From an uncultured Bacilli bacterium (GTDB taxonomy: Bacteria > Bacillota_I > Bacilli_A > RFN20 > CAG-826): a DNA stretch of 64,000 nucleotides. Shown here piece by piece: positions 12,634 through 60,644 of the stretch (positions are counted from its first letter, which is position 1; every line of letters begins with the position of its first letter). The position numbers and the translations under genes were made by a program. The stretch is from NCBI GenBank assembly GCA_934725985.1, contig CAKVCX010000001.1, forward strand, positions 365,910 through 429,909, written 5' to 3'. The notes under the pieces were generated by a model that was not told the origin of the DNA, did not search any database, and saw only the letters and a program-made list of their open reading frames with translations.

Positions 12634-12690
12634 AACGACAAAAGTCTACTATTAATTATATTGATAAGTTAGATATTTTTTAATTTTGTT

Positions 12691-13475: not shown

Positions 13476-15174
13476 CGTTTTTAAACCTTAATTTCTGATT
13501 TAATTCGTTCATTAAACCAGGATCTACTTTAATAATGTTTCTATTAAAGCTAATAAGCCCATTAATTTCGCCTTCAACATCAGAAAGTTGAGTATAAATG
13601 GCAATACTTAGCCCATACTTTTCTTTGCATGGAATAACTTCTTTTTCATACACGTCTTTAATCTTTTTATTAAACTGCTCTTTATTTTTGCATTTTCCAT
13701 ACCCAAAGCTTCTTTTTAAAAGATTACTTACCTGGTAAGAATAACCGCCGAATTCAGTCAAAGATAACACCCTTTCATCCTTGCTTTTTATCTTTATCTT
13801 CCTAAAGTAAACATGTTTAGAATTAAAATCACCACATCCTTGATCATACCAACCAGAATTTGAATCCAAAAGTCTTCCATTTAAGTACTCTTTTGCAATT
13901 TTGCTAAGACGAATGGAGTCAAATTGGCCCCAGCCTTCATTAAAAAGAGTAAATATAGCAATGCATGTTTGGTTAGAAAAATAAGTTAAATAAGGTATTA
14001 ATTGCTTTTCAAAATATTGTCTTGATTCCTTACTTTTTCTACCAAGCAAAGAATATGTTTTAGTATCTATAAACTTATAAGGGATAAAAGGCGCGGTTTT
14101 AATAAGAAAATCTTTGTACTTATATCCACTGTTAACGAAATCTTGCATAACAATCATTCCTAATTTATCGCATAGATAATAAAAACGATTTAGCTCCACT
14201 TTAATGTGTTTTCTTAAGCAATTAAATCCTAATGATTTCAAAAAAGTAATGTCTTTTTCATAATCAAAATATGAAGAAGGCGTCAAGTCACCGCCAGGAA
14301 AATAGCCTTGGTCTAATACGCCGCTACAAAAATATGGATTATTGTTTAAAGCAAAAACATTATGTCCTTTAAAGGAAACAATAGAAAATTTCCTAAAACC
14401 AAAAGAAGAAAAAACCTCATCCTCTTTACTAAAGAATCTTAAAGTATATAAAATGGGCGATTCCGGGCTCCAAGGGTAGAAAAAAGAGGAACAATCAATA
14501 CAGGCATCCCCTTTTTTAGAAAAAGAGGAGACCGCTAAGACAATATCATCTTTAATAATTTCTACTTTAGCCTCTTCGCAATTCCCTTCATAAGAAAGAG
14601 TTACTTTTAATTTCTTTTTATCAAAGTCCTGATTTAGTTTAATACTTTTTATCATTTTATCAGGGACTGCTTCTATATAAATTGGTCCGTAAACACCACT
14701 AGTTGGAGTATACCAAATGCCTTTTGGTTTATTTGATTGTTTTCCCCGTGGAAAAATAGGAGAATCCGTGTCATCTCTACACACAAGCTCAATTTCATTT
14801 TTTCCTTCACATTTCCCTAGATCAAATTGAAAAGGCATATAACCGCCAAAATGCGAACCTATTAGCTTTTTGTTAAAATAAACAAAAGCTATCTGATCTA
14901 CTTTCTCAAAATGCAATATTAAGCGTTTACCTTCATATTCTTTTGGAACAACAAACTCTTTTCTATAATGCAAAATAGATTTTTTGTTAACATGTTTTTT
15001 TATTTTTGATAAATCTGACTCAACAGAAAAAGGGACTACTATTTTTTCATTATAGGAAGAAGGTAAATGTTTATCTTCATTTAGAATAAAATCCCAATCC
15101 CCATTTAATGAAAAATAAGACTTCCTTTCAAAATATGGATTAGGGTGTTCATTTAATGGTAATTCGTTTTGCAT
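13468..15174 (-). CDS. glycoside hydrolase family 2 protein
   Basis: N-terminal NEHPNPYFER…SLNGDWDF sugar-binding domain signature and TIM-barrel region with NEGWG acid/base-like motif. Confidence 0.6.
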   Translation of the reverse strand: MQNELPLNEHPNPYFERKSYFSLNGDWDFILNEDKHLPSSYNEKIVVPFSVESDLSKIKKHVNKKSILHYRKEFVVPKEYEGKRLILHFEKVDQIAFVYFNKKLIGSHFGGYMPFQFDLGKCEGKNEIELVCRDDTDSPIFPRGKQSNKPKGIWYTPTSGVYGPIYIEAVPDKMIKSIKLNQDFDKKKLKVTLSYEGNCEEAKVEIIKDDIVLAVSSFSKKGDACIDCSSFFYPWSPESPILYTLRFFSKEDEVFSSFGFRKFSIVSFKGHNVFALNNNPYFCSGVLDQGYFPGGDLTPSSYFDYEKDITFLKSLGFNCLRKHIKVELNRFYYLCDKLGMIVMQDFVNSGYKYKDFLIKTAPFIPYKFIDTKTYSLLGRKSKESRQYFEKQLIPYLTYFSNQTCIAIFTLFNEGWGQFDSIRLSKIAKEYLNGRLLDSNSGWYDQGCGDFNSKHVYFRKIKIKSKDERVLSLTEFGGYSYQVSNLLKRSFGYGKCKNKEQFNKKIKDVYEKEVIPCKEKYGLSIAIYTQLSDVEGEINGLISFNRNIIKVDPGLMNELNQKLRFKNDD

Positions 15175-15228
15175 GGAACTATTTTACCAAAGTATAGAAA
15201 CTATTTGAGGTGGTATAATAAATTCGTT

Positions 15229-16416
15229 ATGGAAATTAAATCAATTCAAGACAAATTAGCAAACAAAAATGTCGATGGTTATTTATTAATTGATTACGAA
15301 AGCAAAAATAAAGTCTTAGTTTCTTTGCTAGGCGAAAAAATGCTGACAAGAAAAATAATCGCTTTTATCCCAAAAGAAGGCAAAGGAACTTTAATTGCTC
15401 ATTTTATTGATACAGTATATTTAAAAGATAAAGAAACTTTAGCCCAATTTAATTTATTAATTTATAAAACTTGGCAAGAACTATTAGATTTAGAACAAAA
15501 GCTTCTTTTAAACAAATCCAAAATAATGATGGATATTTCTAACAATGGCTTATTAATGCGGATTGCCAAGGCCGATTATGGATCTGTTGAATACATTAAA
15601 TCGCTAGGAGTAGAAGTCATTTCTTCGGGTGATTTATTGCAATCATTAACATCCGTATTAAGCGATGACCAATACAAAGAAGAATTAGATGCATGCAGAA
15701 AAACCCTGCAAATCAAAAACGAAGCATTCAAATTAATAAAACTTGAAATAGAAGAATTTAAAGAGACAAACGAATATAAAATTCAATCTTTTATAGCTAA
15801 ACGTTTTCATGAAGAAGGCATGGTTTATGACGACTTACCTTTAGTTGCAAATGGGAAAAACGCCTCAAATCCACATTATTCTCCAAACCAAGGAAATTAC
15901 GGATTAATTAAAAAAGGAGACTTAGTCCTAATTGACATGTGGGCAAAAAATAACAACAAAAATGGGGTATATGCCGACATTACTTGGATGGGATATGTGG
16001 GAGTTGATGTCCCAAAGATATATAAAGATAGGTTTGCAATAATTAAAAATGCTAGAAATGAAGTTATTTCTTTTTTAAGCAAAGAACTAAAAAAAAGAAA
16101 AGTATATGCCTATGAAGCAGATGATGTAGCAAGAAAAATTATAGAGCAAGCAGGCTATGGAGATTATTTCTTACATAGAGTTGGCCATAATATTGCAGTA
16201 GATGTATCTCCTCATGGCCCGGGTGCAAATTTAGATAATTACGAAACACATGACGATAGGTCATTAATGGAAGGCACTAGTTTTTCTGATGAACCCGGTA
16301 TCTATGCACCCGATTTTGGCATGCGAACCGAAACAAACCTACACATAAAAAATAACCAGTTAATCGTTGTGGCTGGGTTGCAAGATGAAATAATACCAAT
16401 TATGAAAATTAAATAG
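15229..16416 (+). CDS. M24 family metallopeptidase (Xaa-Pro aminopeptidase/dipeptidase-like)
   Basis: HRVGHNIAVDVSPHGPG and the Asp/Glu metal ligands of the pita-bread fold. Start taken at ATG 15229 (MEIKSIQDKL…) rather than the TTG at 15169, which overlaps the divergent GH2 start. Confidence 0.75.
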   Translation: MEIKSIQDKLANKNVDGYLLIDYESKNKVLVSLLGEKMLTRKIIAFIPKEGKGTLIAHFIDTVYLKDKETLAQFNLLIYKTWQELLDLEQKLLLNKSKIMMDISNNGLLMRIAKADYGSVEYIKSLGVEVISSGDLLQSLTSVLSDDQYKEELDACRKTLQIKNEAFKLIKLEIEEFKETNEYKIQSFIAKRFHEEGMVYDDLPLVANGKNASNPHYSPNQGNYGLIKKGDLVLIDMWAKNNNKNGVYADITWMGYVGVDVPKIYKDRFAIIKNARNEVISFLSKELKKRKVYAYEADDVARKIIEQAGYGDYFLHRVGHNIAVDVSPHGPGANLDNYETHDDRSLMEGTSFSDEPGIYAPDFGMRTETNLHIKNNQLIVVAGLQDEIIPIMKIK

Positions 16417-47565: not shown

Positions 47566-48369
47566 ATGAAATACTTTGGTGGATGTGATGCCGGATCGAC
47601 ATATACAAAATGTGTCATCCTTGACGAAAATGGAAAAATGGTCGCTAATGTGACATTAAAATCGAAAATAAATGCAGTCGAAAGCGCTCGGCTTGCCTTA
47701 GAAGAAGCCATAAAACAAGTAGAAGGCCTTAACGAAACAAAAGACTTGGCCTATCTAATCGGCACAGGTTATGGAAGAAACAAAGTGCCTTTTGCCGATG
47801 AAAACATTTCTGAAATTTCTTGCCATGCGATGGGGGTCCATCTAGCCGATCCTAGCATTACTTCCATTATCGATATCGGTGGGCAGGATATTAAAGGCAT
47901 TGCCATCGATCCAAAAGATGGAACCGTGCAAAATTTTGCCATGAATGATAAATGCTCCGCCGGAACCGGACGTTTCTTTGAGGCCATGGCACGCAGTTTT
48001 GAAATGGATTTGGATGATTTTTGTTCTCTTTCTTTAAAAGCTAATAACATCATTCCCATTACTTCTCAATGCACTGTCTTTGCCGAATCCGAAGTCATCT
48101 CCTTAGTTGGCGAAGGAAAGCCAATGGAAGATATAGCAGCAGGAATAATGACCTCAGTTGCTAAAAGATGCTTCGTCATGGCTAAAAAAGCCGGGGCCAC
48201 AGATTCGATTACTTTAACAGGTGGATGTGCTAAAAACCTTGGTTTAAAACAAGCCATTGAAAAAGTACTTCACTTAAAAGTAAAAGACTTGCCTATCGAC
48301 CCTCAATTAATGGGAGCTTTAGGCGCGGCAGAATACGCTAGAAGAAAAGGAATGAAAGAAGGAAGATAA
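47566..48369 (+). CDS. BadF/BadG/BcrA/BcrD-type ATPase, acyl-CoA dehydratase activase (HgdC-like)
   Basis: N-terminal GGCDAGSTYTKCVILDENG (ASKHA fold), two conserved Cys for the bridging [4Fe-4S], ~260 aa size. Confidence 0.8.
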   Translation: MKYFGGCDAGSTYTKCVILDENGKMVANVTLKSKINAVESARLALEEAIKQVEGLNETKDLAYLIGTGYGRNKVPFADENISEISCHAMGVHLADPSITSIIDIGGQDIKGIAIDPKDGTVQNFAMNDKCSAGTGRFFEAMARSFEMDLDDFCSLSLKANNIIPITSQCTVFAESEVISLVGEGKPMEDIAAGIMTSVAKRCFVMAKKAGATDSITLTGGCAKNLGLKQAIEKVLHLKVKDLPIDPQLMGALGAAEYARRKGMKEGR

Positions 48370-48370
48370 T

Positions 48371-48550
48371 ATGGAATGGTGGATAATATTATTAATCGTT
48401 CTTGGTTCAATCCTAGCTTTCATCCTATTTCTATTCATTGTTTTATTTACAGTTTATTTCTTTAATCTTGACTCCAAACTTCTAGCCCATATCCAAAAAT
48501 GGATAAATAAAAAATACGATAAAAGAAAGAGAAACCGTCATTTAGAATAA
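48371..48550 (+). CDS. small single-pass membrane protein (59 aa)
   Basis: MEWWIILLIVLGSILAFILFLFIVLF… hydrophobic helix plus basic tail; starts 2 nt after the hgdC-like stop (just under the 60-aa ORF-track threshold). Confidence 0.35.
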   Translation: MEWWIILLIVLGSILAFILFLFIVLFTVYFFNLDSKLLAHIQKWINKKYDKRKRNRHLE

Positions 48551-48551
48551 T

Positions 48552-49253
48552 ATGAATCTATATGATTCCATCATTAAAAAAGCATTAACTCTTTTTAATG
48601 AGAAAGAGTTAATTTCATTTCCTTTGGAAAGCAAGTTCCCCATGGAAAAAAAGAAAGGATTTATCTTTTCTGATGATACCAAAGTCGAACTTGGTTCAAA
48701 TGATAAATCCGCTTATTTTATGGGTTATACTACAAATGAAAAACTAATAAACAAGGACGAAATTCTTTTACTTGGAAAAGATTTAAACTTGCTTGATAAA
48801 CAATCTTGTTTTGCCCACCTTTCATTCTTCTTGCTTGAAGACAAGAGAAAAGAAGACCAGCAAACGTATAGATTGCTAAGAGACTTAGAATATTCTCGTT
48901 ACAACGTATTCCCAAATGGATATATGTTAAGGATAAATACAAATTCTTTAAAAGAAGGGGCACGTGTATCAAAAAAAGCCATAGAAAGTGGCATTTCATT
49001 TAAAGATATAGGGATGGCATTTTTAAATTCCTATAAGAAAGAAAAATCATTAAGATACGTAAAACAAGTATTCGTTACTGACCCAACCTTTGATTTTTCA
49101 TCATTGCTAGAGTTGCAAAAAGAAGTCGAGGCCATAACAATTGCTTTTGACCATATATTGAAAAATTTAAAAATGGATTGTAAAACATGTTCCTTTAAAG
49201 AAATCTGCGATACGGTAGAAGGAATGAAAGATTTACATAAAAACAAAAATTAG
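48552..49253 (+). CDS. hypothetical protein (233 aa) with C-terminal CxxC…C cluster
   Basis: Co-oriented and abutting the small TM ORF; no recognisable motif except MDCKTCSFKEIC. Confidence 0.35.
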   Translation: MNLYDSIIKKALTLFNEKELISFPLESKFPMEKKKGFIFSDDTKVELGSNDKSAYFMGYTTNEKLINKDEILLLGKDLNLLDKQSCFAHLSFFLLEDKRKEDQQTYRLLRDLEYSRYNVFPNGYMLRINTNSLKEGARVSKKAIESGISFKDIGMAFLNSYKKEKSLRYVKQVFVTDPTFDFSSLLELQKEVEAITIAFDHILKNLKMDCKTCSFKEICDTVEGMKDLHKNKN

Positions 49254-49341
49254 AATTATTCATACTTCTATTTTTATTAAAAAAATAACGCTTAGCTCAT
49301 ATGGGTGTTACAATAAAGAAGAAAAAATAGAGGTGTACAAA

Positions 49342-50811
49342 ATGGAATATGCAATTTTATCTTTATCCATATTAATGGTTTTATTTTCGTTCATTATTTT
49401 ATTATTCGTTATAAAAAATAGAAAAAAGGGTGATTTAAGCCTAGGGGAAAACGAAATAAAGAAAATAAAAGAAAGCGTAGCTGAGTCCATCAACACATTA
49501 AGCGTCTCTATAAGCTCTTTAGTTGCAGAGAAAAACTCTACCCTAATGGATAATTTAGATAAAAAGGTTGATGAATCTATCACAATAGAAAAAGACTTAG
49601 TCAAAGAATTAAATGCATTTAAGGAGCAAACAACTAACCTCCTTAACCAAGGCAATGAGAAAACAAATAAAATTCTTTCCGATTTCGCAAAGCAACATAC
49701 CTTAGAAGCAAATAAAGAAAAAGAAGAGATAATGAATAAGCTCTCTTTGGAAATGAAAGAATTTAACGAAACAGTAAAGAAAACAGTAAATGAATTCAAT
49801 GGATCCATAAAAGAAAAATTAGAAGACTTTAAAAAGAATACCAATGAATCGATAAAAATATTAAGCGAGGCCGTTTTAAGAAACTTATCCGAAATAAGGG
49901 AAGACAATAACAAAAAATTAGAGCAAATAAACCAATCGGTAAACGAAAAGCTTCAAAAGACTTTGGAAGAAAAATTAAAAGATTCCTTTAAAAGCGTTGT
50001 CGAAGGCATAGGCGATGTTAACAAAGCAGTCGGCGAAATCAAAGGCCTTGCCACAGATGTCGGTTCTTTAAAAAATGTCTTAACCAATGTCAAAACAAAA
50101 GGCATCATGGGTGAAGTAATCCTAGGCAACATCATAAGAGAATTCTTAACTACGGGGCAATATGAAGAAAACGTTGTCACAAAAAAGAATTCAAACGAAC
50201 GAGTAGAGTTTGCAATCAAATTGCCCGGAAATAAGGATGAGACAATACTCTTGCCCGTAGATTCAAAATTCCCATACGAAGCCTATTCAAAAATCCATGA
50301 ATCTTCGAACATGGATGAAATAAACGAAGCAAAAAAGCTTTTAAGAAGCAATTTATTAAAATACGCAAAAGACGTAAGCGAGAAATATATAGATGTCCCC
50401 AACACAACAAATTTTGCCGTCATATTCTTGCCATTAGAAGGCTTATATCTAGAAGCCCTTAACATGGGATTATTTGAAGAAATACAAGAAAAATATAACG
50501 TTAATTTAACCGGCCCAACCACTTTTACCGCATTCATCAATTCGCTTAACATGGGATTTAAGTCGTTAATGATTCAAAAGAAAAGCGCGGATGTCTTTAA
50601 GCTACTAGGGGCGGTAAAAACAGAATTTGGAAAATTTGCCGAAGCCTTAGAAAAAACGCAGAAGAAAGTCAATGCAGCAGCAGACGAATTAGATACTTTA
50701 GTAGGCACAAGAACCAAAATGATGAATTCGAAATTAAAGAATATAGACGCATTAGACGAAGCTAGCACAAAGTTATTGTTAGAAGGAAAGGAAAAACAAA
50801 ACGAGAATTAA
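49342..50811 (+). CDS. rmuC: DNA recombination protein RmuC
   Basis: N-terminal TM helix, long coiled-coil, C-terminal RmuC nuclease-like domain (VEFAIKLPGNKDETILLPVDSKFPYEAY). Start at ATG 49342 (GAGGTG RBS). Confidence 0.75.
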   Translation: MEYAILSLSILMVLFSFIILLFVIKNRKKGDLSLGENEIKKIKESVAESINTLSVSISSLVAEKNSTLMDNLDKKVDESITIEKDLVKELNAFKEQTTNLLNQGNEKTNKILSDFAKQHTLEANKEKEEIMNKLSLEMKEFNETVKKTVNEFNGSIKEKLEDFKKNTNESIKILSEAVLRNLSEIREDNNKKLEQINQSVNEKLQKTLEEKLKDSFKSVVEGIGDVNKAVGEIKGLATDVGSLKNVLTNVKTKGIMGEVILGNIIREFLTTGQYEENVVTKKNSNERVEFAIKLPGNKDETILLPVDSKFPYEAYSKIHESSNMDEINEAKKLLRSNLLKYAKDVSEKYIDVPNTTNFAVIFLPLEGLYLEALNMGLFEEIQEKYNVNLTGPTTFTAFINSLNMGFKSLMIQKKSADVFKLLGAVKTEFGKFAEALEKTQKKVNAAADELDTLVGTRTKMMNSKLKNIDALDEASTKLLLEGKEKQNEN

Positions 50812-50870
50812 ACATTTGCTAACGTATCGTTTCTTTTGCAGTCCAAAGCTTAAAAAGTTTTACCAAGACT

Positions 50871-53861
50871 TTAGCTTTCTAATCCAAATCCAAACCAGTC
50901 AAAACTGTTTCTATACTGTCTACGGACTTCCACATCTTTTAAATCTAGTTTGCTTCCTAGCGATTCATTAACAAAAAATTCATGGATATAGTTATTTAAA
51001 ACATCTTCCTGAAAAACTTTATACTTGTTTAAAATCTGGAAATCCTTCTTAGTAATGCCCACCGCTTCCAAAAACACATCAGGATCCGCGTTATTAAATA
51101 TTTCCATAAATGTAGTCTCGCGATATACGCTTATGTAGAGAAATTCAAACAGTCGAGCGAGCAAATGCTTCAAAACGTTATCCGCATCCTCAATTGTTTC
51201 TCCGTTTTTAGGGTCAACAGCAGGAATCAGGTTTGTTTTAACAGCTCTTCTAAACGAATCACGATACCATCTTCTATAAAGCATACCTCTATACTTAATA
51301 GGTATATTCTGCTGTGCATTCAGATATGTCTTAACAAAATTCTCAATAGCAACTTTGGTCCTATTTGTATACTTAATGTCTTCCCCAAAATTCTTTTTTA
51401 TTTCATCAATAAATTTAACTCCATCCGTATAGCCGCATTGTTCTTTCTTAATAGGGGCATTCACTCCGGATTGATACCCTTTTTTAAAACCATTTGTATA
51501 CCAAGTCTGTTCGGCTGGCTCTAATCCTTTTGGGCAAAATTCCTTAATATAATCAGATAGGGCTGTCTCGAATTCAATCTGTACTTGATTATCGTCATAA
51601 TCGACATATTTTTTGTAATCTAGTTGCCCTAATTCGTAACCTTTGTCTCTACCTTCTTTTGCAATCTTAGTATCGAAACCACTTTCAGGTTTTGCAGGAA
51701 CTGTTGCAGTCTTAGTCTTTCCAAATTTAGCGTGAGCAAAAACCCTTTTAATAATGTCGCTAACCTCTTTATCGTTTAACATTTCCGCCATCGTTTCTTC
51801 ATCAAGCATTCTGGTTGTTTTAGTTGTGTCTACAATTTTTTTAGACAAAGGAATTCCGCTTGAATCGCCGTATTGAGCAAGTTCATAGAAAACTTGTTCT
51901 GATATTGGATCAGACATATCGCCATTTATGAAAATGGGCATATATTTAACAATTAATTTTGCGATTTCCAATTTGGTCGTTTGCTCATTCTCTGATTGTT
52001 CAGCGTATTTTAAAAGCAAAGCGCTAGCCCTATCTATATTAAAATCATATACGTACCCATCTTTTTTCTTAATTTTGCCATTTTCAACATATGGGGTTTG
52101 AATCCTAAAAATAGCTTGAAAATATTGTTCTGGGCTAGCTAAATCCTTAAGAACGAATACGCTGGACCATTTCTTAACAGTAACGCCAATAGTAAGTTTG
52201 TTGACTGTTATCGCAATAGACCCAAGCTTATTGGTGTTCTCAGATTCGGTGATACCATTCATTAAATACTCGAAAGCGCAATTTCCTGCCCCGACACCAT
52301 CTTTGGAAAGATTAATGATTTGGTATCTAGAAAAATAAGAATCCAACTTCAAAAGGTTTTCCATTGCCTTACACGACTTAACCGTTGGCATAAGCCACAA
52401 TGTATGGATGTTATTTTGAAGCATTTGGGGATTAGAATAAGGGAAGTTATCGCCAAAAGTAGAACGACCCTTTATAATTTCAAGCCATTTCTTTATTTCA
52501 CCCTCGTAAATGAACGTGCAGGGTTCATTCGGATTGTTCTCTTGCCTTGTCTCGAAGAATTTGTTCAAAGAGAAATATTTTTTTGTTAGCAATCTGTCCT
52601 CAGAAAAGACCGAGGCGGTAAGGTTGCCGAAAAGCCTGGACATGTTGTATCCGAATATCTTCATGTCTGGGAAAGAGGCGTAGCTTGGATTCACGACCGA
52701 GAAATCGCCCTTGTCGCTATTGGGGTATTTGTTCCTTTGCTCATCAAAATAAGAGTATGTAAATGAGGACTGGTCCGTGAATTCGCCTCTAGCCAATGCT
52801 TTAAATGGAGTTCCTGACAAGCAAATTGTTTGCTTAGTCTTTATATTAAATTTTTTAATAACGTCGCCAGCTTTTTTCAATTGATCCTGATAATTACTAT
52901 CAAGATCTTCACTTTTTTCTTCCTTTACTTTTAAAGTACCTTGGGTTCTTTGATTCCACGCGCCAAAATGGTATTCATCAAGTATTACCACGTCCCAATC
53001 TATGTCTTGCAATTGTTGGATTTTACTTTTAACATCTGTGTCCTTTTCTTTGCCTAAATAATTCTGTAAGGATAAGAAAAGAACATAAGGGTCATTAATA
53101 GAAGTCAGCTTAAAATTTTTTCTTCTTAAATTATCATCAGTGAAATATCTATAATTTTTCTTTATGTGTCTTAGATCCTCGCGCCAAGAAGATTCAACAG
53201 CGGGAATAAAAGTAAGAATCAATATTCTTTCTAAATTATGGTCTTCGCAATATTTGTATGTCGTGAAAGATTTTCCAAATCTCATTTTGCAGTTCAAAAG
53301 AAATCTTCCTCTAGGATTCCTAGAAAAATAATAGTTCATGGCGTCAATACAACCCTGTTGTTCTTTTCTAGGGATATAGATTTCCTTGTTTTCATCCGTA
53401 TGCCTCAAGGAATTGAAGATTTGGATGAGTTCATCCGTTGGGACGTTTGTGAACCATTCCTGTTCTTTTTCAACTATCCCCGCATTTGACTTTTTAATTT
53501 CATTATGAACGGAATAGTCCTTGAAGGAGTCGTTTTTTGCATCTAGGCAAATTCCCCAATAAGTGACTTCCCTTTCTAATCCGTATTTTTGATATTGTTC
53601 ATCGGTAAGAGCTAATTCATGTCGCTGATCGTGAATTCTAGATTTGATTGCATGCCAAAAAGTCTCACCAATTTTGCATTTTGTCATCCCCACTTTGATC
53701 CCGTGCGTTTGAAACCAGGGCAGCAAATACATATAGATGAGAATCAGTGAACCATCGGTATTGTTCTTATCATCCAAACTAAAAATAGTTTTATTTTCTT
53801 GGTATTGAATGGCATCCGTTTTATTAATGTCAGGCGATTTAGTAACTAAGATATCTTCCAT
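50871..53861 (-). CDS. GIY-YIG/T5orf172-like nuclease domain fused to SNF2-like SF2 helicase (996 aa), third gene of MTase operon
   Basis: N-terminal ~100 aa LILIYMYLLPWFQTHGIKVGMTKCKIGETFWHAIKSRIHDQRHE (GIY…YIG-like, Arg, Glu); Walker A KMRFGKSFT; motif II ILDEYHFGAW (DExH); motif III CLSGTPF (SNF2-like TGTP); motif VI-like QAIFRIQTP; ~350 aa C-terminal domain of unknown function. Confidence 0.55.
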   Translation of the reverse strand: MEDILVTKSPDINKTDAIQYQENKTIFSLDDKNNTDGSLILIYMYLLPWFQTHGIKVGMTKCKIGETFWHAIKSRIHDQRHELALTDEQYQKYGLEREVTYWGICLDAKNDSFKDYSVHNEIKKSNAGIVEKEQEWFTNVPTDELIQIFNSLRHTDENKEIYIPRKEQQGCIDAMNYYFSRNPRGRFLLNCKMRFGKSFTTYKYCEDHNLERILILTFIPAVESSWREDLRHIKKNYRYFTDDNLRRKNFKLTSINDPYVLFLSLQNYLGKEKDTDVKSKIQQLQDIDWDVVILDEYHFGAWNQRTQGTLKVKEEKSEDLDSNYQDQLKKAGDVIKKFNIKTKQTICLSGTPFKALARGEFTDQSSFTYSYFDEQRNKYPNSDKGDFSVVNPSYASFPDMKIFGYNMSRLFGNLTASVFSEDRLLTKKYFSLNKFFETRQENNPNEPCTFIYEGEIKKWLEIIKGRSTFGDNFPYSNPQMLQNNIHTLWLMPTVKSCKAMENLLKLDSYFSRYQIINLSKDGVGAGNCAFEYLMNGITESENTNKLGSIAITVNKLTIGVTVKKWSSVFVLKDLASPEQYFQAIFRIQTPYVENGKIKKKDGYVYDFNIDRASALLLKYAEQSENEQTTKLEIAKLIVKYMPIFINGDMSDPISEQVFYELAQYGDSSGIPLSKKIVDTTKTTRMLDEETMAEMLNDKEVSDIIKRVFAHAKFGKTKTATVPAKPESGFDTKIAKEGRDKGYELGQLDYKKYVDYDDNQVQIEFETALSDYIKEFCPKGLEPAEQTWYTNGFKKGYQSGVNAPIKKEQCGYTDGVKFIDEIKKNFGEDIKYTNRTKVAIENFVKTYLNAQQNIPIKYRGMLYRRWYRDSFRRAVKTNLIPAVDPKNGETIEDADNVLKHLLARLFEFLYISVYRETTFMEIFNNADPDVFLEAVGITKKDFQILNKYKVFQEDVLNNYIHEFFVNESLGSKLDLKDVEVRRQYRNSFDWFGFGLES

Positions 53862-53862
53862 G

Positions 53863-55596
53863 TTACTTCATCTCCTTGACATTACTTTCTATGAATTCAC
53901 GCTCTTCTGGCGAAAAGCCAAACAAATCAAAGAGTTCCTTATCTGTCCATTTTTTATCAAAATTGAGCAAAGGTATATAACCATAAACGCTTTGTGATGC
54001 GTTTTGATCTAATTTTCGAATTCCTAAAATTGCCCTAAAGAATTTAGTTTTAGCGTATTCCCAGCAATTTTTTGCTTCTTTTTCAGTCTTAAAAGGTCCA
54101 AATACAACATAGGTTTCGGTACATAATTCATTGGGGCCGCCTAATATCGGGTCGGATAACGTTTCTCCAAAAATTCCGCTCCCTTGATTTCTAGCAACGA
54201 AAAGTTTATAGCCCGGCAACAAATCTCTTTTGGGGAGAGGATAGTTTGATGGGATATATCTTATAACTCGTTTTAAATGCTCATCTAAACCATGAACAAT
54301 AAGGCCTTGGTTAACTTTTCCTTTGCTCATTTGGGGAAGGGCGTACTTACCAGGGTCTTTGAAGATGTCGCCGCGTAAGCCATATGGCTTAAGCGGCGAC
54401 ACGATTTTCGAAAATGAGCCACCTTTGTATGCTGTTACCTTTTTATAAATACTTACTAATCTACTATCCCTAATAAACACGTCAGTGTTGCCTTCTTTAA
54501 GGAATCTTTCAGATTCTATTTCTTTGTCAACGTTGTGCTGAATTATTTTACATTTTCCTTCTTCATCACGATTCCAAAGGAAAAAGCAGACACCGCCCTT
54601 TATATCGTTATTTGAAAAACACATTTTCCCATCAGGAAAATCATTCAAGGAACGAATGTGTTTATCCGAAATCATTAAGCTTCTAAATTCATCAAGCCCC
54701 TTTCCGCCGGTCATCCATCTTGAAGGCATAATCATGCTTATATATTTAGGTTTTAAGGAAATTGCCTGTTGAACGAATAGCTGATAAATAGGCCTTGCGC
54801 TCGCTTGAGCGCCACCATCACTCAATTGATAAGGTGGATTGCCAATTATGATATCGAATTTCATTTCCCTATTGCCTCCAAAGAATCTATCTTGCAAATG
54901 CCTTAGCAATTCATCGCTCTTAAAATGGATGAATTCATAAGCATATGTTTCACGTTGATTAACATCGTTATAAATTGATGCGCCGTTAATCCCACAATAC
55001 TTGCACTTATATTTTTTCTTTTCTTCATCGGAGCAAGAATTGGGCATCAATCTTCCTTTTTCATCTACAAACGTATGATTGATATTGGGGGTTTTGATGT
55101 TACCCTCTTCATCCTCGAACCAACTTCCATTGCCAATAGCATAACCGTTAATATAATGCCCATCGTTAGCTTTGATTCCATCGCATTTTCTATTTGCTTG
55201 GGAACAATAATAAACCGTTCTTCTAGCAACATTGGAAGTAAATCTGGTCTGACCAATCGAATAAATCATGTTTCGCAGAATGTGTTTCCTTCTTTGTTCG
55301 GTGTTGGGAATGATTTCTTTAAGACCATCATCCAATCTTATTGCAATCTCCCTTTCGAAGATTCCATTTTTTGTAGCTGGATTCAGCCATTTGTAATTAG
55401 GATTGTGCCAGACTTCCTCAGGAAGAGAATCCAAAATTATGTCGCATGTTTTTCTTGGAGTAAAAACCTCATCGTTGCCTACGTTTGTAATCGTTTCAAG
55501 AATATCAAAATTTTCTATATATTCATTCGCGGATTCCACTGCAGTTTTGTATTTATCTTCAGCTTCTAAAGCATCATTTTTCATCATCATAACCAC
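53863..55596 (-). CDS. gamma-class N6-adenine DNA methyltransferase (Eco57I/TaqI-like)
   Basis: Motif X GNDEVFTPRK, motif I LNPATKNG, motif IV FDIIIGNPPYQ in gamma-class order; 577 aa. Confidence 0.8.
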   Translation of the reverse strand: MVMMMKNDALEAEDKYKTAVESANEYIENFDILETITNVGNDEVFTPRKTCDIILDSLPEEVWHNPNYKWLNPATKNGIFEREIAIRLDDGLKEIIPNTEQRRKHILRNMIYSIGQTRFTSNVARRTVYYCSQANRKCDGIKANDGHYINGYAIGNGSWFEDEEGNIKTPNINHTFVDEKGRLMPNSCSDEEKKKYKCKYCGINGASIYNDVNQRETYAYEFIHFKSDELLRHLQDRFFGGNREMKFDIIIGNPPYQLSDGGAQASARPIYQLFVQQAISLKPKYISMIMPSRWMTGGKGLDEFRSLMISDKHIRSLNDFPDGKMCFSNNDIKGGVCFFLWNRDEEGKCKIIQHNVDKEIESERFLKEGNTDVFIRDSRLVSIYKKVTAYKGGSFSKIVSPLKPYGLRGDIFKDPGKYALPQMSKGKVNQGLIVHGLDEHLKRVIRYIPSNYPLPKRDLLPGYKLFVARNQGSGIFGETLSDPILGGPNELCTETYVVFGPFKTEKEAKNCWEYAKTKFFRAILGIRKLDQNASQSVYGYIPLLNFDKKWTDKELFDLFGFSPEEREFIESNVKEMK

Positions 55597-56569
55597 TATT
55601 CCCCCACATTAATGATACAAACTTGATTTCCTGATCCTTCTCCCAATCCATAATGACACATCTCTTTCCGTTATGCTTTTTGGGATCATTATTTTTACAG
55701 CCCGGACAAATATCAAACTTAGGCTCTTCTAATTCACCAAACAAGCTCAGCTGAACTGCTTTTTTTACTTCGTTATGGCATGAAAAAGGGACTACGTATT
55801 TTAATCCGTCCATTTGCCAAATATTCCAACTAATAATTGTTGCTACATTAATCAGCAATTCTTTATCCGGCAATTTATCAAATCTATCAAGATAATAATC
55901 GATAAAATCAAAAAATATGTTCTCGCGTGCTATTAAAAGATTATCCCCCTGGAATTCGTAACCATAAATTGACTTTAAGGCCTTCATTGCATATTCAAGC
56001 CATTCGTCATCACTAGAAGCGTTCTCCTTTATAACCCTAAATTTCCTATCTAAAAGACCAACTCTATTTTTAATTTCTATTATTTGGCCGTTTACTGCAT
56101 CATATCTTGATACTAAATATGGAGCCTCCCCACAGCAAACCTCTAAGCGGATATCGTTTACATAATCAATCCAAGTTTTACCACAATCAAAAATTACTTT
56201 TTCAGTTGGCGTCCAAGTATTATCTAAATTCTCTATATTAAACTTTCCTTTATTGCCAAACCATGCATCATCGACTAAATTATTTTGCTTATTCACAAGC
56301 CAAGATGGAGTAAAAACCTCAGCGTTATCTTTGCTTCTTTTTACTTGTTCAGCCTTGCTCTTTTCTATTCTTGGCCTGATAGCACGTATTCCGCTAAGCA
56401 CGTGCATTGGTTTGATTTCATTAGTAGGCGAATAACCTTTGCCTTTATTTTTGTAATGATCTGTAGCCCAGATAATGTTTTTGTTCGTCGTTCTATCTAA
56501 TAGAAGAGCGGAAAGGATTTCAGGGAAAGAAGAATACACTTCATTTAAATTTATTTCACTTTCAGCCAT
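55574..56569 (-). CDS. methyltransferase-like N-terminal fragment-type protein with C-terminal zinc ribbon (first gene of operon)
   Basis: AEVFTPSWLV (motif X-like) and a possible degenerate motif I (LEVCCGEAPY) but no NPPY; C-terminal CHNEV…CPGCKNND CxxC-type ribbon; 23-nt overlap with the MTase gene. Confidence 0.4.
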   Translation of the reverse strand: MAESEINLNEVYSSFPEILSALLLDRTTNKNIIWATDHYKNKGKGYSPTNEIKPMHVLSGIRAIRPRIEKSKAEQVKRSKDNAEVFTPSWLVNKQNNLVDDAWFGNKGKFNIENLDNTWTPTEKVIFDCGKTWIDYVNDIRLEVCCGEAPYLVSRYDAVNGQIIEIKNRVGLLDRKFRVIKENASSDDEWLEYAMKALKSIYGYEFQGDNLLIARENIFFDFIDYYLDRFDKLPDKELLINVATIISWNIWQMDGLKYVVPFSCHNEVKKAVQLSLFGELEEPKFDICPGCKNNDPKKHNGKRCVIMDWEKDQEIKFVSLMWGNSGYDDEK

Positions 56570-56782
56570 CGCTTTTCCATCCGTTTCATTATATTTAGAT
56601 ATTAATGTAGCATTTTTAAGAATAAAGCACTACAAACTTAGCGAACCATTTTTAGAAAATGTTAAAAATAAAAAATACTATAAACAAAAAAATAAAAGAA
56701 TAACCAAAAAACCATCCGCTGAGGATTTCTAAAATTTAATTTTATTTAAAAATTCTAATTATTCAAAAACGCTTTTTGATAA

Positions 56783-58888
56783 TCAAATATGGAAAAGAAT
56801 ATCTCCATACGTAGGAACTGGCCATAAAGACTTAGGGACCAATAATTCAGCCTCGTCTATAGGAGCACGTAATTCTTTCATGGCTTTTTTAAGTTTTGTG
56901 CTAGCAAAGAACGCCTTTTCTTCCTCACCATTTATTTGACTATCTTCCTCAATTAAAGAATCTAGTTTTTCTAACGCAAGGAAGGAACGGTTTAAGACGT
57001 CTATTAATTTTTCTTTTGTCTTGAAAACGGGAAGGCAAGAAGAACCAATTCCTTTTTCTTCTTCTAAAATATTATTTAAGGCATTATGAATGCAAGGAAG
57101 GAATAGCTTATGTGCCATTCTAGACATGGTTTTGGCCTCGATTATGGCTTTGTTATGATAATCTTGATATTTAATATTTACTCTAGATAGAATTTCTTTT
57201 TCTTTAAATACACCACTGCCAATCAACATTTCGAAATTTTCTTTTCTAGTATAGGCTTTAATGGCCTCAGGAGTCGTCCTTAGATTCATTAAGCCTCTTT
57301 TAGCAGCTTCCTTTTCCCATTCCTTGCTATAACCATCCCCGTTAAAGACAATACGTTTATGTTCTTTTATTGTCTTTTTAATCCATTCTAAAGATGTTTG
57401 CTCTTTATCAACACTTTTTTCTAACATAGCAGAGAGTTCATTTAACCCTTCGGATAAAACAACGTTTAAAAAAGTATTAGGTTCGGCAATATTTTGCTCA
57501 CTACCAACCATTCTAAATTCAAACCTATTGCCCGTAAAGGCAAAAGGAGAAGTTCTATTCCTGTCCATATCGTCCTTAGGAAAAGAAGGTAACGTCTTGC
57601 TTCCATTTATAAAACTTTTAATATTTTCGCTAGTTTTTAAATCATTATTAAGAACTTCTTCTATAAGACTTGTTAAGGCTTCGCCTAAATAAATACTTAA
57701 TATAGCCGGAGGGGCTTCGTTCGCGCCTAGCCTAAAGTCATTGCCATAACTAGCAACCGATTCTCTTAGTAAATCAGAATGCAAATCAACGCCCCGCAAA
57801 ATAGAAGAAAGGAAAATAAGGAATCTTAGATTGCTTTTTTTATCTTTGCCTGGTGAAAATAAGTTAATCCCAGTGTCTGTTCCGACTGACCAATTGTTAT
57901 GCTTACCCGAACCATTTATTCCTTCAAATGGTTTTTCAGCAAGTAGGCAAATCATGCCATGGTGCTTAGCAATACGTTTTAATAAACGCATGACCAATTG
58001 ATTTTGATCGCAAGATAAACTAGAAGGGGCATAAATACAAGCCAGTTCATGTTGGCTTGGTGCAACTTCGTTATGCTCGGTCTTAGCTGGGATCCCAAGT
58101 TTCCATAAAGCATCATTAACCTCTTGCATAAAAGAAGAAATTTTTTCTCTTATTGGTCCAAAATAATGATCATCCAATTCTTGTCCTTTTGGAGATGACG
58201 CCCCAAAAAGAGTACGACCCGTGTATACAATATCTTTTCTTTTTAAGTAATCTTGGCTTTCGATTAAAAAATATTCCTGTTCAGCTCCGGCATAACTATA
58301 TACGTGTTTAACATCGTTATATCCTAATAAATGTAAAAGTCTTATTACTGACTCATTTAAATAATCTTCGCTCCTTAGCAATGGAGTTTTATCATCTAAA
58401 GCCTCGCCATTATACGAACAAAAAGCCGTCGGTATATATAAAATTGCACCATATTCATCATCTAAAACAAAAGCAGGGCTTGTTGCATCCCAAACCGTAT
58501 ATCCTCTTGCTTCAAAAGTTGCACGTAATCCACCAGAAGGAAAACTAGAAGCATCCGGTTCCCCCTTTATTAATTCTTTGCCGCTAAAATCAAAGGAAAT
58601 CTTCCCGTCTTCATTAGGTTTGCCGATAAAGGCATCATGTTTTTCGGCAGTCAAGCCATTAAGAGGCTGAAACCAATGGGTATAATGGGTCGCCCCTTTA
58701 TCAAGCGCCCAATTTAATAAACCCTTGGCTACTTCATCGGCAAAAGAAGGATCGAGTTCTTTTCTTTCCTTTGTAGCCTCATTTAAGGCATTATAGGCTT
58801 CTATGCTTAAATACTTTCTTTTTTCTTCATCATTAAAAACGTTAATTCCAAAATTGTTTTGGAAATAGTTAGTTTCTTTTTTGCCCAT
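56783..58888 (-). CDS. glnN: glutamine synthetase type III
   Basis: 701 aa, GSIII-size; N-terminal GSIII-specific region and GS catalytic-domain motifs (e.g. NGSGKHNNWS). Confidence 0.8.
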   Translation of the reverse strand: MGKKETNYFQNNFGINVFNDEEKRKYLSIEAYNALNEATKERKELDPSFADEVAKGLLNWALDKGATHYTHWFQPLNGLTAEKHDAFIGKPNEDGKISFDFSGKELIKGEPDASSFPSGGLRATFEARGYTVWDATSPAFVLDDEYGAILYIPTAFCSYNGEALDDKTPLLRSEDYLNESVIRLLHLLGYNDVKHVYSYAGAEQEYFLIESQDYLKRKDIVYTGRTLFGASSPKGQELDDHYFGPIREKISSFMQEVNDALWKLGIPAKTEHNEVAPSQHELACIYAPSSLSCDQNQLVMRLLKRIAKHHGMICLLAEKPFEGINGSGKHNNWSVGTDTGINLFSPGKDKKSNLRFLIFLSSILRGVDLHSDLLRESVASYGNDFRLGANEAPPAILSIYLGEALTSLIEEVLNNDLKTSENIKSFINGSKTLPSFPKDDMDRNRTSPFAFTGNRFEFRMVGSEQNIAEPNTFLNVVLSEGLNELSAMLEKSVDKEQTSLEWIKKTIKEHKRIVFNGDGYSKEWEKEAAKRGLMNLRTTPEAIKAYTRKENFEMLIGSGVFKEKEILSRVNIKYQDYHNKAIIEAKTMSRMAHKLFLPCIHNALNNILEEEKGIGSSCLPVFKTKEKLIDVLNRSFLALEKLDSLIEEDSQINGEEEKAFFASTKLKKAMKELRAPIDEAELLVPKSLWPVPTYGDILFHI

Positions 58889-59116
58889 AGTTTTCTCCCT
58901 TGATGGTTTTAAAGCTATTTATTAGGAAGATAAATTCCTATGGTTCTTTATTCTTGCACGTGTAGAAAAAATATAAACAATAAAAGCGCTTTCTTGATAA
59001 AAAAATTAAAAAGACCTCTTAAACTAAAATGATGTTTTTTAGTTTTAAAACTATGGTTTTTGCTATTTTCTTTTGTTTTTCTTTTAATTATGTAGTTTTT
59101 AAACTATACTTTTTAC

Positions 59117-59773
59117 ATGAAAAACAAAATGATTCTCTACCATGGGTCAAATCAAATAATAAAGACGCCAACCTATGGTTTTGGCAATAAAAATAATGAT
59201 TATGGCGTTGGATTTTATTTAACGCAGGATAAAGCCATGGCCAATGTTTGGGCCAGCAAAAATTTAAATGATGGATATGTTAATGAATACGCTTTAAATT
59301 TAAGTGGCCTTTCTATACTTAATTTAACAACCAATACAGAAAAAGATATATTGATTTGGATCACTATTTTAATCTCACACAGGTTTTCTTTTTCCGAAAA
59401 AGAAGAAAAGAAAGAAATAATAGACTGGCTAATTAGGCACTTTGGTGTTTCAACCGATGACTACGACATATTAATAGGCTATAGAGCCGATGACAGCTAC
59501 TTTGCTTATTCATATGATTTCGTTAATGATCAATTGCCGTTAGAACTGCTTTTAGAAGCAATGAAATTAGGGAAATTAGGGAAACAAGTAGCGCTCATTT
59601 CGAAAAAAGCATTTAATAACCTAGAATTTATCGATTACGAAAAAATAGAGAAGAGTTCATCTTACGATTCAATTCGAAGACAAGCGTCTATCGAATATGA
59701 AATACTAAAAAGAAAAAGAAGTATTAATATGACATATATGAGGGACGTCATTAGAAAATATGAAAGAAATTAA
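59117..59773 (+). CDS. DUF3990 domain protein
   Basis: ILYHGSNQIIKTPTYGFGNKNNDYGVGFYLT…WA matches the DUF3990 N-terminal signature. Confidence 0.5.
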   Translation: MKNKMILYHGSNQIIKTPTYGFGNKNNDYGVGFYLTQDKAMANVWASKNLNDGYVNEYALNLSGLSILNLTTNTEKDILIWITILISHRFSFSEKEEKKEIIDWLIRHFGVSTDDYDILIGYRADDSYFAYSYDFVNDQLPLELLLEAMKLGKLGKQVALISKKAFNNLEFIDYEKIEKSSSYDSIRRQASIEYEILKRKRSINMTYMRDVIRKYERN

Positions 59774-60644
59774 TAATGTAGATGTATGGGCTTTGAAAAA
59801 TAAATTGGGAGGATTATTAAACCATTTGTATTTTGATGCCGGAATATCAAAGGAAATGATCCAATACAAAATGATTTTTTCCTCAGTTTTGGACTGTTTT
59901 GAAAACAACGATGTGGACTCTTTTTTAGGCACTTCCGACCAAGAAATCATTCAATCTTTATTCGAAGGAGAGACTCAAATTGACTATTCGAAAATAAACC
60001 CTGTATTCCTATGGGCGGGGTACAGCTATATAGATTTATCAATAAAGCTGTCAATACCTATAAAAACGGTTTTTCTTTTATTGCCATTAGATGAAATGCT
60101 TTCGTTATTTGAGCCTTATCATGAAATGTCTTTTTCTCATTTGAAGGACTATTACCTTAAAAACTGTAACACTAGAAGTATTTTTGAAAGCATTAGGTCA
60201 TATAGTTCATATTCTAGAAAAGAGGTATGCATATTAGCAGGCATAAAAGAAAAAACATTACCAAATTATATTTATAACAATAAAGCTTTGTTTAACTCTT
60301 CATTTAAAACGATTATAAAATTATCTAAATTATTTTCTTGCCAATTGGATTTGTTTAAGGAAGAGTCTTCTTTTATACCGTTTAGTTTTTCTTTTATGGA
60401 AAAGGAAGAATTTGTTAATAAACTATTAGATTCATTATTTTTGTTTTATCCAAAATTTAAAAACGAAAAAGTTCACTTTATTCTTGACCAAAATAAAACA
60501 CATTCCACCAGCAACGAAAAAGATGCCGTTTCTTTCGATTTTATCAATTTATGTTTTATAGAAGGTAAAGTAAAAACATACATAAAAGAAGAGATATTCA
60601 ACTACGCGTTAGGTGAAGCCTGCCGTGATTTTTATAAAATTTAA
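59760..60644 (+). CDS. hypothetical protein with XRE-type HTH (possible DUF3791-like partner of DUF3990)
   Basis: Central HTH-like segment RKEVCILAGIKEKTLPNYIYNN…IIKLSKLFSCQLDLF; 14-nt overlap with the DUF3990 gene. Confidence 0.35.
   Translation: MKEINNVDVWALKNKLGGLLNHLYFDAGISKEMIQYKMIFSSVLDCFENNDVDSFLGTSDQEIIQSLFEGETQIDYSKINPVFLWAGYSYIDLSIKLSIPIKTVFLLLPLDEMLSLFEPYHEMSFSHLKDYYLKNCNTRSIFESIRSYSSYSRKEVCILAGIKEKTLPNYIYNNKALFNSSFKTIIKLSKLFSCQLDLFKEESSFIPFSFSFMEKEEFVNKLLDSLFLFYPKFKNEKVHFILDQNKTHSTSNEKDAVSFDFINLCFIEGKVKTYIKEEIFNYALGEACRDFYKI

Follow-up and report, generated by a model that had tools for sequence, protein, structure and literature searches.

Three adjacent genes of an uncultured Bacilli bacterium as a candidate Type ISP-like restriction-modification system with a GIY-YIG-type nuclease domain and a separate half-methyltransferase

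Introduction

The genome of an uncultured Bacilli bacterium (GenBank assembly GCA_934725985.1) carries three tightly packed and co-directional genes between glnN and rmuC, and the question raised by this locus is whether a putative adenine methyltransferase, a putative nuclease-translocase and what resembles the first half of a second methyltransferase make up a single restriction-modification (RM) system and, if so, how this system relates to the known RM types. The stretch of DNA analysed here, hereafter the window, comprises 64,000 nucleotides of contig CAKVCX010000001.1 (positions 365,910 to 429,909), and all coordinates are counted from its first letter; the same sequence is found without a difference in a 1.05-Mb scaffold assembled from a human-gut metagenome. 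In a preliminary description, the locus was regarded as a novel operon resembling a Type ISP or Type IIG enzyme split over three polypeptides, in which a GIY-YIG-like domain takes the place of the usual Mrr-type nuclease. By combining profile searches, alignments of homologues, a structural model and the comparison of related loci, we come to the view that the three genes, named A, B and C in their 5' to 3' order, probably specify one ATP-dependent, Type ISP-like RM system built from separate parts.

Results

The three genes form an obligate unit

Gene A (55574-56569, 331 residues), gene B (53863-55596, 577 residues, with a GTG start) and gene C (50871-53861, 996 residues, the nuclease-translocase subunit) are all listed as open reading frames (ORFs) on the minus strand. 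A and B overlap by 23 nt and a single base separates B from C, so the layout first reported for the locus is exact to the coordinate; in an independent gene call B starts 6 nt later, which shortens the protein to 575 residues and the overlap to 17 nt. The three ORFs are real genes and not chance ORFs, since C has many clusters of homologues (543 of the candidates that were scored are homologous, and 1510 clusters form at 50% identity), the homologue search with A returned at least 8000 candidates, B matches the Pfam family Eco57I, and all family-invariant residues of the alignments are present in the window copies of A, B and C.

Scanning of one genome per species gave at least 590 confirmed relatives of C, and 80 loci were kept, including those of Treponema, Gallibacterium, Rothia, Bacteroidales, Fibrobacter, Sphingomonas, Patescibacteria, Actinomycetota and others. 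The conservation of the neighbourhood, a check proposed along with the preliminary description, was borne out: B and A are found upstream of C and on the same strand in 61/61 loci, this set being composed of the loci with at least 2.6 kb of sequence upstream of C, and the genes mostly overlap or abut. A, B and C always occur together and the triad is an obligate unit.

Further insight comes from plasmids of Firmicutes (Enterococcus, Lactococcus and Bacillus), in which C and B are fused into a single protein of 1412-1445 residues with the motor at the N-terminal side and the Eco57I methyltransferase at the C-terminal side. In several of these fusions the match to C starts at residue 42, so that the T5orf172 region is included. 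A is a separate upstream gene in the plasmids bearing the fusion, giving the order A then C-B as against A-B-C, and B and C are encoded separately in the window, as they are in nearly all of the 61 loci. That C and B can be fused and that the three genes co-occur without exception argues strongly for proteins that act as one machine, and the fusion supports the earlier suggestion of a split Type ISP-like enzyme with a GIY-YIG domain in place of Mrr.

The predicted nuclease head, motor and helical tail of C

The N-terminal region of C (residues 39-151; 53409-53747, minus strand) is a putative T5orf172/GIY-YIG-type nuclease domain, an assignment supported by the profile matches of its homologues. 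Indeed, T5orf172 is matched by 29/40 diverse homologues of C (best E-value 1.8e-10) and MUG113 by 19/40, and membership of the GIY-YIG superfamily via PF10544/PF13455 is obtained through these homologues and agrees with the conservation of the Tyr, Arg and Glu residues. Y43 and K56 are invariant, while G58, R75, H119 and E135 are at least 90% conserved. The modelled domain comprises strands 39-46 and 55-62, helix 68-78, strand 96-104 and helix 115-125, that is, a beta-beta-alpha-beta-alpha arrangement. T5orf172 belongs to the GIY-YIG superfamily, and a T5orf172 protein of phage ICP1, Gp88, has been described as an origin-directed nuclease (PMC8263062).

The following region (residues 160-645; 51927-53384, minus strand) constitutes a predicted superfamily 2 (SF2) motor. 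Every SF2 ATPase motif is invariant across 52 sequences, namely the Q-motif (Q168), Walker A (K197), the DEYH box at 295-298 (D295/E296/H298), the SGT motif at 349-351 (S349-T351) and motif VI (Q582/R586). Among the relatives of C, the Pfam family ResIII is matched in 33/40 and SNF2-related families in a few. The structural comparisons rest on predicted models, the one for C being an AlphaFold2 model with a predicted local distance difference test score (pLDDT) of 78.8; the folds closest to its motor are those of Snf2-family ATPases and of the Type ISP enzyme LlaBIII, followed by ZorD, SauUSI, EcoP15I Res (13.7) and HsdR (13.3), and a Foldseek search is in agreement (E-values of ~1e-10 for Chd1/ISWI and 5e-10 for LlaBIII). 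The SNF2-like translocase announced for the last gene is therefore recovered as a fold, and all of the short motifs quoted for the locus are present in the proteins (EVFTP in A and B; NPATKNG and NPPY in B; GKS, DEYH and LSGTP in C).

The C-terminal region of C (residues 650-996; 50874-51914, minus strand) is all-helical in the model and has no Pfam match. Its last ~120 residues (50874-51224, minus strand; consensus ~880-996) form a module kept family-wide, with L897, F907 and F930 nearly invariant. In the fused homologues, the helical region presumably sits between the motor and the methyltransferase. Regarding the databases, the PADLOC profile REase_MTase_IIG (PDLC03626) matches C at 6.2e-31 over positions 174-595, no informative NCBIfam or PHROGs family was obtained for C, and searches of the PDB sequences, LlaBIII (4xqk) included, by phmmer or with the family profile yielded nothing meaningful and no match at E ≤ 1.

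The end of C is variable in length and content among relatives. Most of the close homologues are ~100 residues longer and carry an acidic linker followed by a winged-helix-like end of ~45 residues (…NWKLK), as in proteins P0033 and P0095 (residues ~997-1110). A tail-less C of 995-1000 residues recurs in other genomes (P0070-72, P0076, P0081 and P0090), and in P0116 and P0118 a C-terminal GGACT/AIG2-like domain (PF06094) replaces the tail of C.

B, a predicted adenine methyltransferase with a variable half

B is predicted to be an Eco57I-family, gamma-class N6-adenine DNA methyltransferase. The assignment of the middle gene to the Eco57I/TaqI type is confirmed at the level of Pfam, the Eco57I profile matching B at 6.1e-30 and being matched by 29/29 aligned relatives; in PADLOC, B matches MTase_II (PDLC03375) and the C-terminal part of REase_MTase_IIG (PDLC03626; 1.6e-37, positions 998-1359). 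The methyltransferase core (residues 31-330; 54607-55506, minus strand) contains motif X (EVFTP), a TaqI-like motif I (LNPATKNGIF, the family form being LDPxxKSGVFL) and motif IV (NPPY; 54829-54840, minus strand), whose residues N253-Y256 are invariant in 29 sequences. The same 29 sequences share an invariant Cys/His insert (H174, C198, C201 and H224; 54925-55077, minus strand). Searches of B against PDB sequences by phmmer and with the family profile gave nothing meaningful, including no phmmer match to MmeI (5hr4).

The C-terminal half of B (residues 331-577; 53866-54606, minus strand) is variable. Against two close relatives, B shows 90-97% identity over its first ~300 residues but only 13-57% over the C-terminal half. 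Such an identity mosaic is the pattern expected of a swappable target-recognition domain, and we infer that the C-terminal half of B has this function.

Two further observations concern this half of the protein. At loci L096/L097 (6001-7737, at least 2 samples), B is split into a methyltransferase core of 353 residues and a recognition-half ORF of 218 residues lying 18 nt apart, and the N-terminal part shares a 90%-identity cluster with B of the window; this may be a natural split yielding a 'specificity subunit' or an inactivating stop. Moreover, the start of the variable half in the window's B contains a 36-bp palindrome with zero spacer (54366-54401; arms TGTCGCCGCGTAAGCCAT and ATGGCTTAAGCGGCGACA), which encodes SPLKPYGLRGD. 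The arms are complementary at 17/18 positions, and it is the sole zero-spacer palindrome of at least 16/18 in the 64-kb window; the homologous stretch of locus L002 reaches 11/18 only. Situated at the junction between the core and the target-recognition domain, the palindrome could serve in recombination or regulation, or could have arisen by chance.

A, a predicted half-methyltransferase

A is predicted to be a non-catalytic half-methyltransferase subunit of a long-form subfamily, corresponding to the N-terminal half of a gamma methyltransferase that binds S-adenosylmethionine (SAM). Residues ~81-255 (55805-56329, minus strand) carry motif X (EVFTP), a motif I-like segment (LEVCCGEAPYL), motif II (YGYE) and motif III (NIWQMD), and the catalytic motif IV (NPPY) is absent from A. 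In the alignment of 45 sequences, the invariant columns are E84-T87, E143, C146-E148, P150, Y202-G203, N249 and D254. These motifs are followed by a predicted Cys3His zinc ribbon (residues 264-309; 55643-55780, minus strand), found in the long-form subfamily only, whose C264, C288, C291 and H299 are invariant in the 45 sequences and which is modelled as short beta-strands. They are preceded by a long-form N-terminal extension (residues 1-80; 56330-56569, minus strand), which is not present in short-form A and in which L22, L23, D25, I32, Y39, G43, R67, K70, Q75 and R78 are conserved. The first gene had been likened to a truncated methyltransferase N-terminus joined to a zinc ribbon, and both parts are recognised here.

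Most of the wider family has a short A without the zinc ribbon, with a median of 227 residues (typically 215-250). These short forms match only the first ~110 positions of the Pfam families N6_Mtase and MmeI_Mtase. The family consensus reads GEVFT / FLEPACGxGNFL / YGvD / NIxxGD, and motif I has the canonical SAM-binding form in the short forms. As to the window's A, no Pfam or NCBIfam family was found and PHROGs was uninformative; the PADLOC profile MTase_II (PDLC03390) matches it over its full length at 1.9e-110.

The relationship of A to the methyltransferase proper was addressed with profiles built from separate A-only and B-only sequence sets. The A-only profile matches 60/69 N-termini of B proteins over motifs X and I, with E-values down to 1.6e-13, and because of these matches A appears to be a relative of a methyltransferase N-terminus that ends before the catalytic half. 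The window's B is not among the 60, and hhalign of long-form A against B aligned motif X alone with a probability of 3%; the profile comparison thus supports homology between A and the N-terminus of B across the family, and the support is weak for the pair in the window. At the nucleotide level, a 21-nt direct repeat with 95% identity (55456-55476 and 56306-56326) corresponds to the (A/D)EVFTP-coding stretch of A and B and is the sole notable direct repeat around the triad; it is a trace of shared origin or of gene conversion.

Relation to Type ISP, Type III and Type I systems

The fused relatives resemble the Type ISP enzymes LlaGI and LlaBIII in that nuclease, SF2 motor, helical linker, gamma-class N6-adenine methyltransferase and recognition domain follow one another in the same order, and in being plasmid-borne in lactic acid bacteria. 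The association of a motor of LlaBIII/LlaGI-like fold with a gamma N6-adenine methyltransferase, typical of Type ISP, is likewise found in the family. The nuclease differs, being an N-terminal Mrr-type PD-(D/E)xK domain in Type ISP enzymes and T5orf172/GIY-YIG (T5orf172/MUG113) in the window system. Type ISP enzymes are single polypeptides, whereas the window system is made of three and its fused relatives of two, and the half-methyltransferase A has no counterpart in Type ISP. The likeness to a split Type ISP or Type IIG enzyme suggested beforehand holds for the architecture, the single polypeptide by which both types are recognised being absent.

The triad has in common with Type III systems an SF2 subunit matching the Pfam family ResIII and a separate methyltransferase that would hold the specificity; in both, methylation of one strand of an asymmetric site would be expected. 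However, the methyltransferase of Type III is Mod, while B is of the gamma-class Eco57I/N6_Mtase kind with the motif order X-I-IV and has no match to a Type III methyltransferase profile in Pfam, NCBIfam or PADLOC. In addition, the nuclease of Type III Res is a C-terminal PD-(D/E)xK domain, whereas that of C is N-terminal and of GIY-YIG type, the C-terminus of C being all-helical without any nuclease match. The motor of C is closer to the Snf2 and Type ISP folds than to Type III Res, and A is an extra subunit with respect to Type III. Finally, the set of HsdR, HsdM and a separate HsdS that characterises Type I is not what the triad encodes. The view that the locus departs from the canonical gene sets of Type I, Type III, bacteriophage exclusion (BREX) and defence island system associated with restriction-modification (DISARM) is upheld by these comparisons and by those presented below for the last two.

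In PADLOC, the other systems (Hma, DISARM, BREX, MADS and others) were tried as candidates and rejected, no significant match being obtained for the window, distant or fused members; a weak mad2 match and PDC-S57 matches at about 1e-6 to 1e-7 were the sole extras. In this PADLOC run, proposed along with the preliminary description, RM profiles, MTase_II and REase_MTase_IIG, do match A, B and C.

Surroundings of the triad in the window

Gene A is flanked by glnN, encoding a type III glutamine synthetase (56783-58888, minus strand; Pfam GSIII_N and Gln-synt_C), and the gene for RmuC (49333-50811, plus strand; Pfam RmuC) is convergent with C. The AT-rich intergenic region of 213 bp upstream of A (56570-56782, minus strand) is presumed to be the promoter region. 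In the promoter and terminator scan, the matches did not rise above those of shuffled sequence, two weak sigma-70-like candidates being located at 56786-56758 and 56766-56739. No ORF of at least 20 residues encoding a helix-turn-helix (HTH) is present between A and glnN (56570-56782), so the window copy has no controller gene there. Inspection of the surroundings of the triad for insertion scars, flanking repeats and phase-variation repeats gave nothing convincing, the GC content of the triad is not distinctive, and Rfam returned no matches over 48000-60500.

Beyond glnN (59117-60644), a gene for a DUF3990 protein of 218 residues is followed by an overlapping ORF of 294 residues with no assigned function; both are co-directional and AT-rich, with 27-30% GC. 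On the other side of the triad, away from glnN and the DUF3990 gene, a gene for a YafQ/ParE-family toxin lies ~10 kb away.

Genomic context of the relatives

Several close relatives are located in defence islands, with genes for SIR2, AAA_21, resolvase, MazG-like and Schlafen-like helicase proteins (L002-L005), with TIR and HIT genes (L011) or with a DUF262 gene (L095). Relatives are carried by 81 plasmid records. One homologue of C, identified by match, is found beside the excisionase gene on a complete human-gut temperate phage (L098, phage NatCom_35866, ~10793-16024; Ca. Heliusvirales), where adjacent genes for a hypothetical protein of 260 residues and a methyltransferase are assigned to A and B by their positions. 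A more distant C-like helicase is present in Lak megaphages.

A gene of 63-67 residues encoding an HTH_3/MqsA-like protein is found at the loci of some relatives (L006-L009, 7118-7321; L095, 6711-6914; L096/L097, 4831-5022). In L006-L009 and L096/L097 this gene runs up to or into the start of A, and in L095 it lies ~130 bp upstream; its product resembles an RM controller protein.

In ~18/61 loci (e.g. L015, L040, L053, L080 and L087), 0.35-1.2 kb of unrelated DNA separates B and C. These inserts carry DUF1016/YhcG PD-(D/E)xK, RhuM, HEPN (Apea) or AbiU2 genes, or a YafQ/RelB toxin-antitoxin pair, and the window has no insert. The junction between B and C appears to be an insertion hotspot. Type I operons have been reported to harbour DUF1016 and RhuM passengers between their core genes (PMC9881135). 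A fourth core gene between B and C was considered and rejected, the genes found there being heterogeneous passengers.

Discussion

A model for the triad

The interpretation of the triad as one RM system draws directly on the integrity of the genes, the identities of the domains, the conserved catalytic residues, the obligate co-occurrence, the variable half of B and the mobile and defence contexts of the relatives. Starting from these, complex formation, ATP-driven translocation, the position of the cut, one-strand methylation and a role for A can be combined into a model, which we infer as follows. B would read the DNA sequence by means of its variable C-terminal half and methylate adenine at N6 with SAM, thereby marking host DNA as self. 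When phage or plasmid DNA enters the cell, its unmethylated sites would recruit or activate C, which would move along double-stranded DNA by its Snf2-like/Type ISP-like motor with consumption of ATP and would cut the DNA with its N-terminal T5orf172/GIY-YIG domain. With only one active site per GIY-YIG domain, breakage of both strands would probably require that two complexes converge or that nicking be repeated, as is the case for Type ISP enzymes, and this in turn would imply methylation of one strand of an asymmetric site. A would act as an obligatory SAM-binding half-methyltransferase, itself unable to methylate, whose most likely partners are B, the helical tail of C or both, and which may couple site recognition or methylation state, and possibly SAM availability, to the motor-nuclease.

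The universally retained half-methyltransferase A is the really unexplained element of the family. It is conceivable, and we offer this only tentatively, that A is an obligatory non-catalytic SAM-binding subunit which licenses or restrains a translocating GIY-YIG nuclease, e.g. as a sensor of SAM or of the state of the B-DNA complex, in which case the triad would represent a distinct ATP-dependent RM type with a subunit logic of its own, going beyond a split Type ISP enzyme.

Points that weigh against the model and alternative explanations

A number of points weigh against the interpretation of the triad as a Type ISP-like RM system. Restriction, methylation and the complex are all predicted from sequence and models. 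The window's own C reaches T5orf172 below the threshold (E = 0.021; 15.8 bits for a cut-off of 20, over profile positions 3-99 of 101), even though the nuclease head proposed for it is matched in its relatives and keeps the Tyr, Arg and Glu residues, and it stays just below the threshold for ResIII as well (22.3 bits for a cut-off of 22.5). Since no sequence relation to any solved RM enzyme was detected, the analogy with Type ISP is one of fold and architecture. Motif I in the window subfamily of A (LEVCCGEAPYL) departs from the canonical GxG, and SAM binding by the long-form A is not assured. To these are added the surroundings of the triad, which lies among housekeeping genes and outside any defence island, the lack in the window copy of the HTH controller seen in close relatives and, in C, of the winged-helix-like tail of ~100 residues that most close relatives possess. 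The last point against the model comes from the most thoroughly studied counterpart, the DnmA(YeeA)-YeeB-YeeC cluster of B. subtilis, which protected neither against three phages nor in transformation (PMC9973331, PMC7261158).

This cluster likewise consists of three genes, for an N6-adenine methyltransferase without a nuclease of its own, an SF2 helicase and a T5orf172/GIY-YIG protein. For clusters of this type, a Type I-like RM system with one-strand modification was predicted in 2009 (PMC2731913), and homologues from Vibrio crassostreae have been reported to affect phage sensitivity (PMC9973331). It differs from the triad in several respects. DnmA is a methyltransferase of MmeI type, whereas B is of Eco57I type (Eco57I in 29/29 relatives, MmeI_Mtase weakly in 9/29). 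YeeB is described as a separate helicase and YeeC as a protein with C-terminal T5orf172, whereas C has both fused with the nuclease N-terminal. Lastly, a half-methyltransferase gene is not described for the Yee clusters. The B. subtilis genes, showing neither restriction nor phage protection, have been interpreted as a relic, and the triad could by analogy be one in which restriction is dead or inefficient and B serves as an orphan adenine methyltransferase for epigenetic regulation, as proposed for DnmA; the missing controller and tail and the housekeeping neighbours of the window copy would fit such a fate. We nevertheless hold this to be unlikely: the three ORFs are intact with all of their family-invariant catalytic residues, the recurrence of a tail-less C elsewhere marks the shorter protein as a natural variant, selection on B alone should have let A and C decay, and the triad is kept in every one of the 61 loci.

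The names given in PADLOC suggest another possibility, that of a true Type IIG/IIS-like set which would cut at a fixed distance without long-range movement driven by ATP, the helicase-like domain serving as a switch or a clamp. The profile REase_MTase_IIG is matched by B and C and also by distant and fused members of the family, the fused 'Type IIG' proteins of PDLC03626 from Enterococcus, Lactococcus and Bacillus plasmids (1412-1445 residues) are true homologues with the same A-like gene upstream, and the founding member of the Eco57I family, to which B is assigned, is a Type IIG enzyme. For CglI, ATP-dependent helicase-like subunits that work without classical translocation have been described (PMC5737866). 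However, the name of a profile is a database label and not a tested property, and the window encodes separate proteins and not the one polypeptide of Type IIG. The label predicts ATP-independent cutting at a fixed distance, which fits poorly with an intact translocase motor: the Q-motif, Walker A/B, motif III and the motif VI arginine are invariant in 52 sequences, and the fold of the motor is closest to translocases of double-stranded DNA (Snf2 family, LlaBIII and ZorD). This possibility appears to us rather improbable.

Least probable of all is a non-cleaving, BREX-like exclusion based on methylation or a mobile-element module mainly devoted to addiction or to protection of the element, to which the weak PglX matches of B (PADLOC, 0.083; NCBIfam BREX_1_MTaseX, 6.6e-4 for a cut-off of 500 bits), the frequency of the family on plasmids and the copy on a temperate phage might point, given that no PglZ, BrxC/BrxL, DrmA/DrmB or other BREX or DISARM component is found in the window or in related loci, that the family-wide conservation of the GIY-YIG Tyr, Arg and Glu favours DNA cutting, and that RM systems are themselves commonly plasmid- or prophage-borne and addictive, so that a mobile module would largely overlap with an RM system.

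A catalogued family and its significance

An ATP-dependent, Type ISP-like RM system in separate parts therefore remains the interpretation that we prefer for the triad. The epithet 'novel' in the preliminary description was, in this respect, an overstatement: its relatives are already covered by the RM profiles of PADLOC, by GenBank labels such as 'GIY-YIG nuclease family protein', 'Eco57I ... methylase' or 'restriction endonuclease (subunit M)', and by papers of 2009 and 2012, Morgan et al. 2009 and Smith et al. 2012 having drawn attention to uncharacterised relatives in which helicase subunits and GIY-YIG nucleases occur. T5orf172 is also listed among RM nucleases in comparative-genomics papers. 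In the literature, no experimental study of the family was found, no such class is described in a 2025 review of host-dependent RM, and the text of a lactococcal methylome paper does not identify the fused homologues, so that no methylation motif can be drawn from it for them. The family is catalogued in databases but uncharacterised.

If the model is correct, the family would rank among the most widespread uncharacterised ATP-dependent RM architectures, with at least 590 confirmed matches and 1510 clusters in many phyla, on plasmids and in a gut phage, and it would provide the first GIY-YIG nuclease driven by a Snf2-like/Type ISP-like motor. The 'Type II/IIG' label would then predict the wrong mechanism, and methylomes and barriers to gene transfer would be misread accordingly, both in gut bacteria and in industrial lactic acid bacteria. 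As a tool, the recognition half of B might be attractive for being modular and swappable. Above all, a half-methyltransferase that is always encoded separately, even where B and C are fused, poses a clean question on how methylation, SAM and restriction may be coupled in these bacteria.

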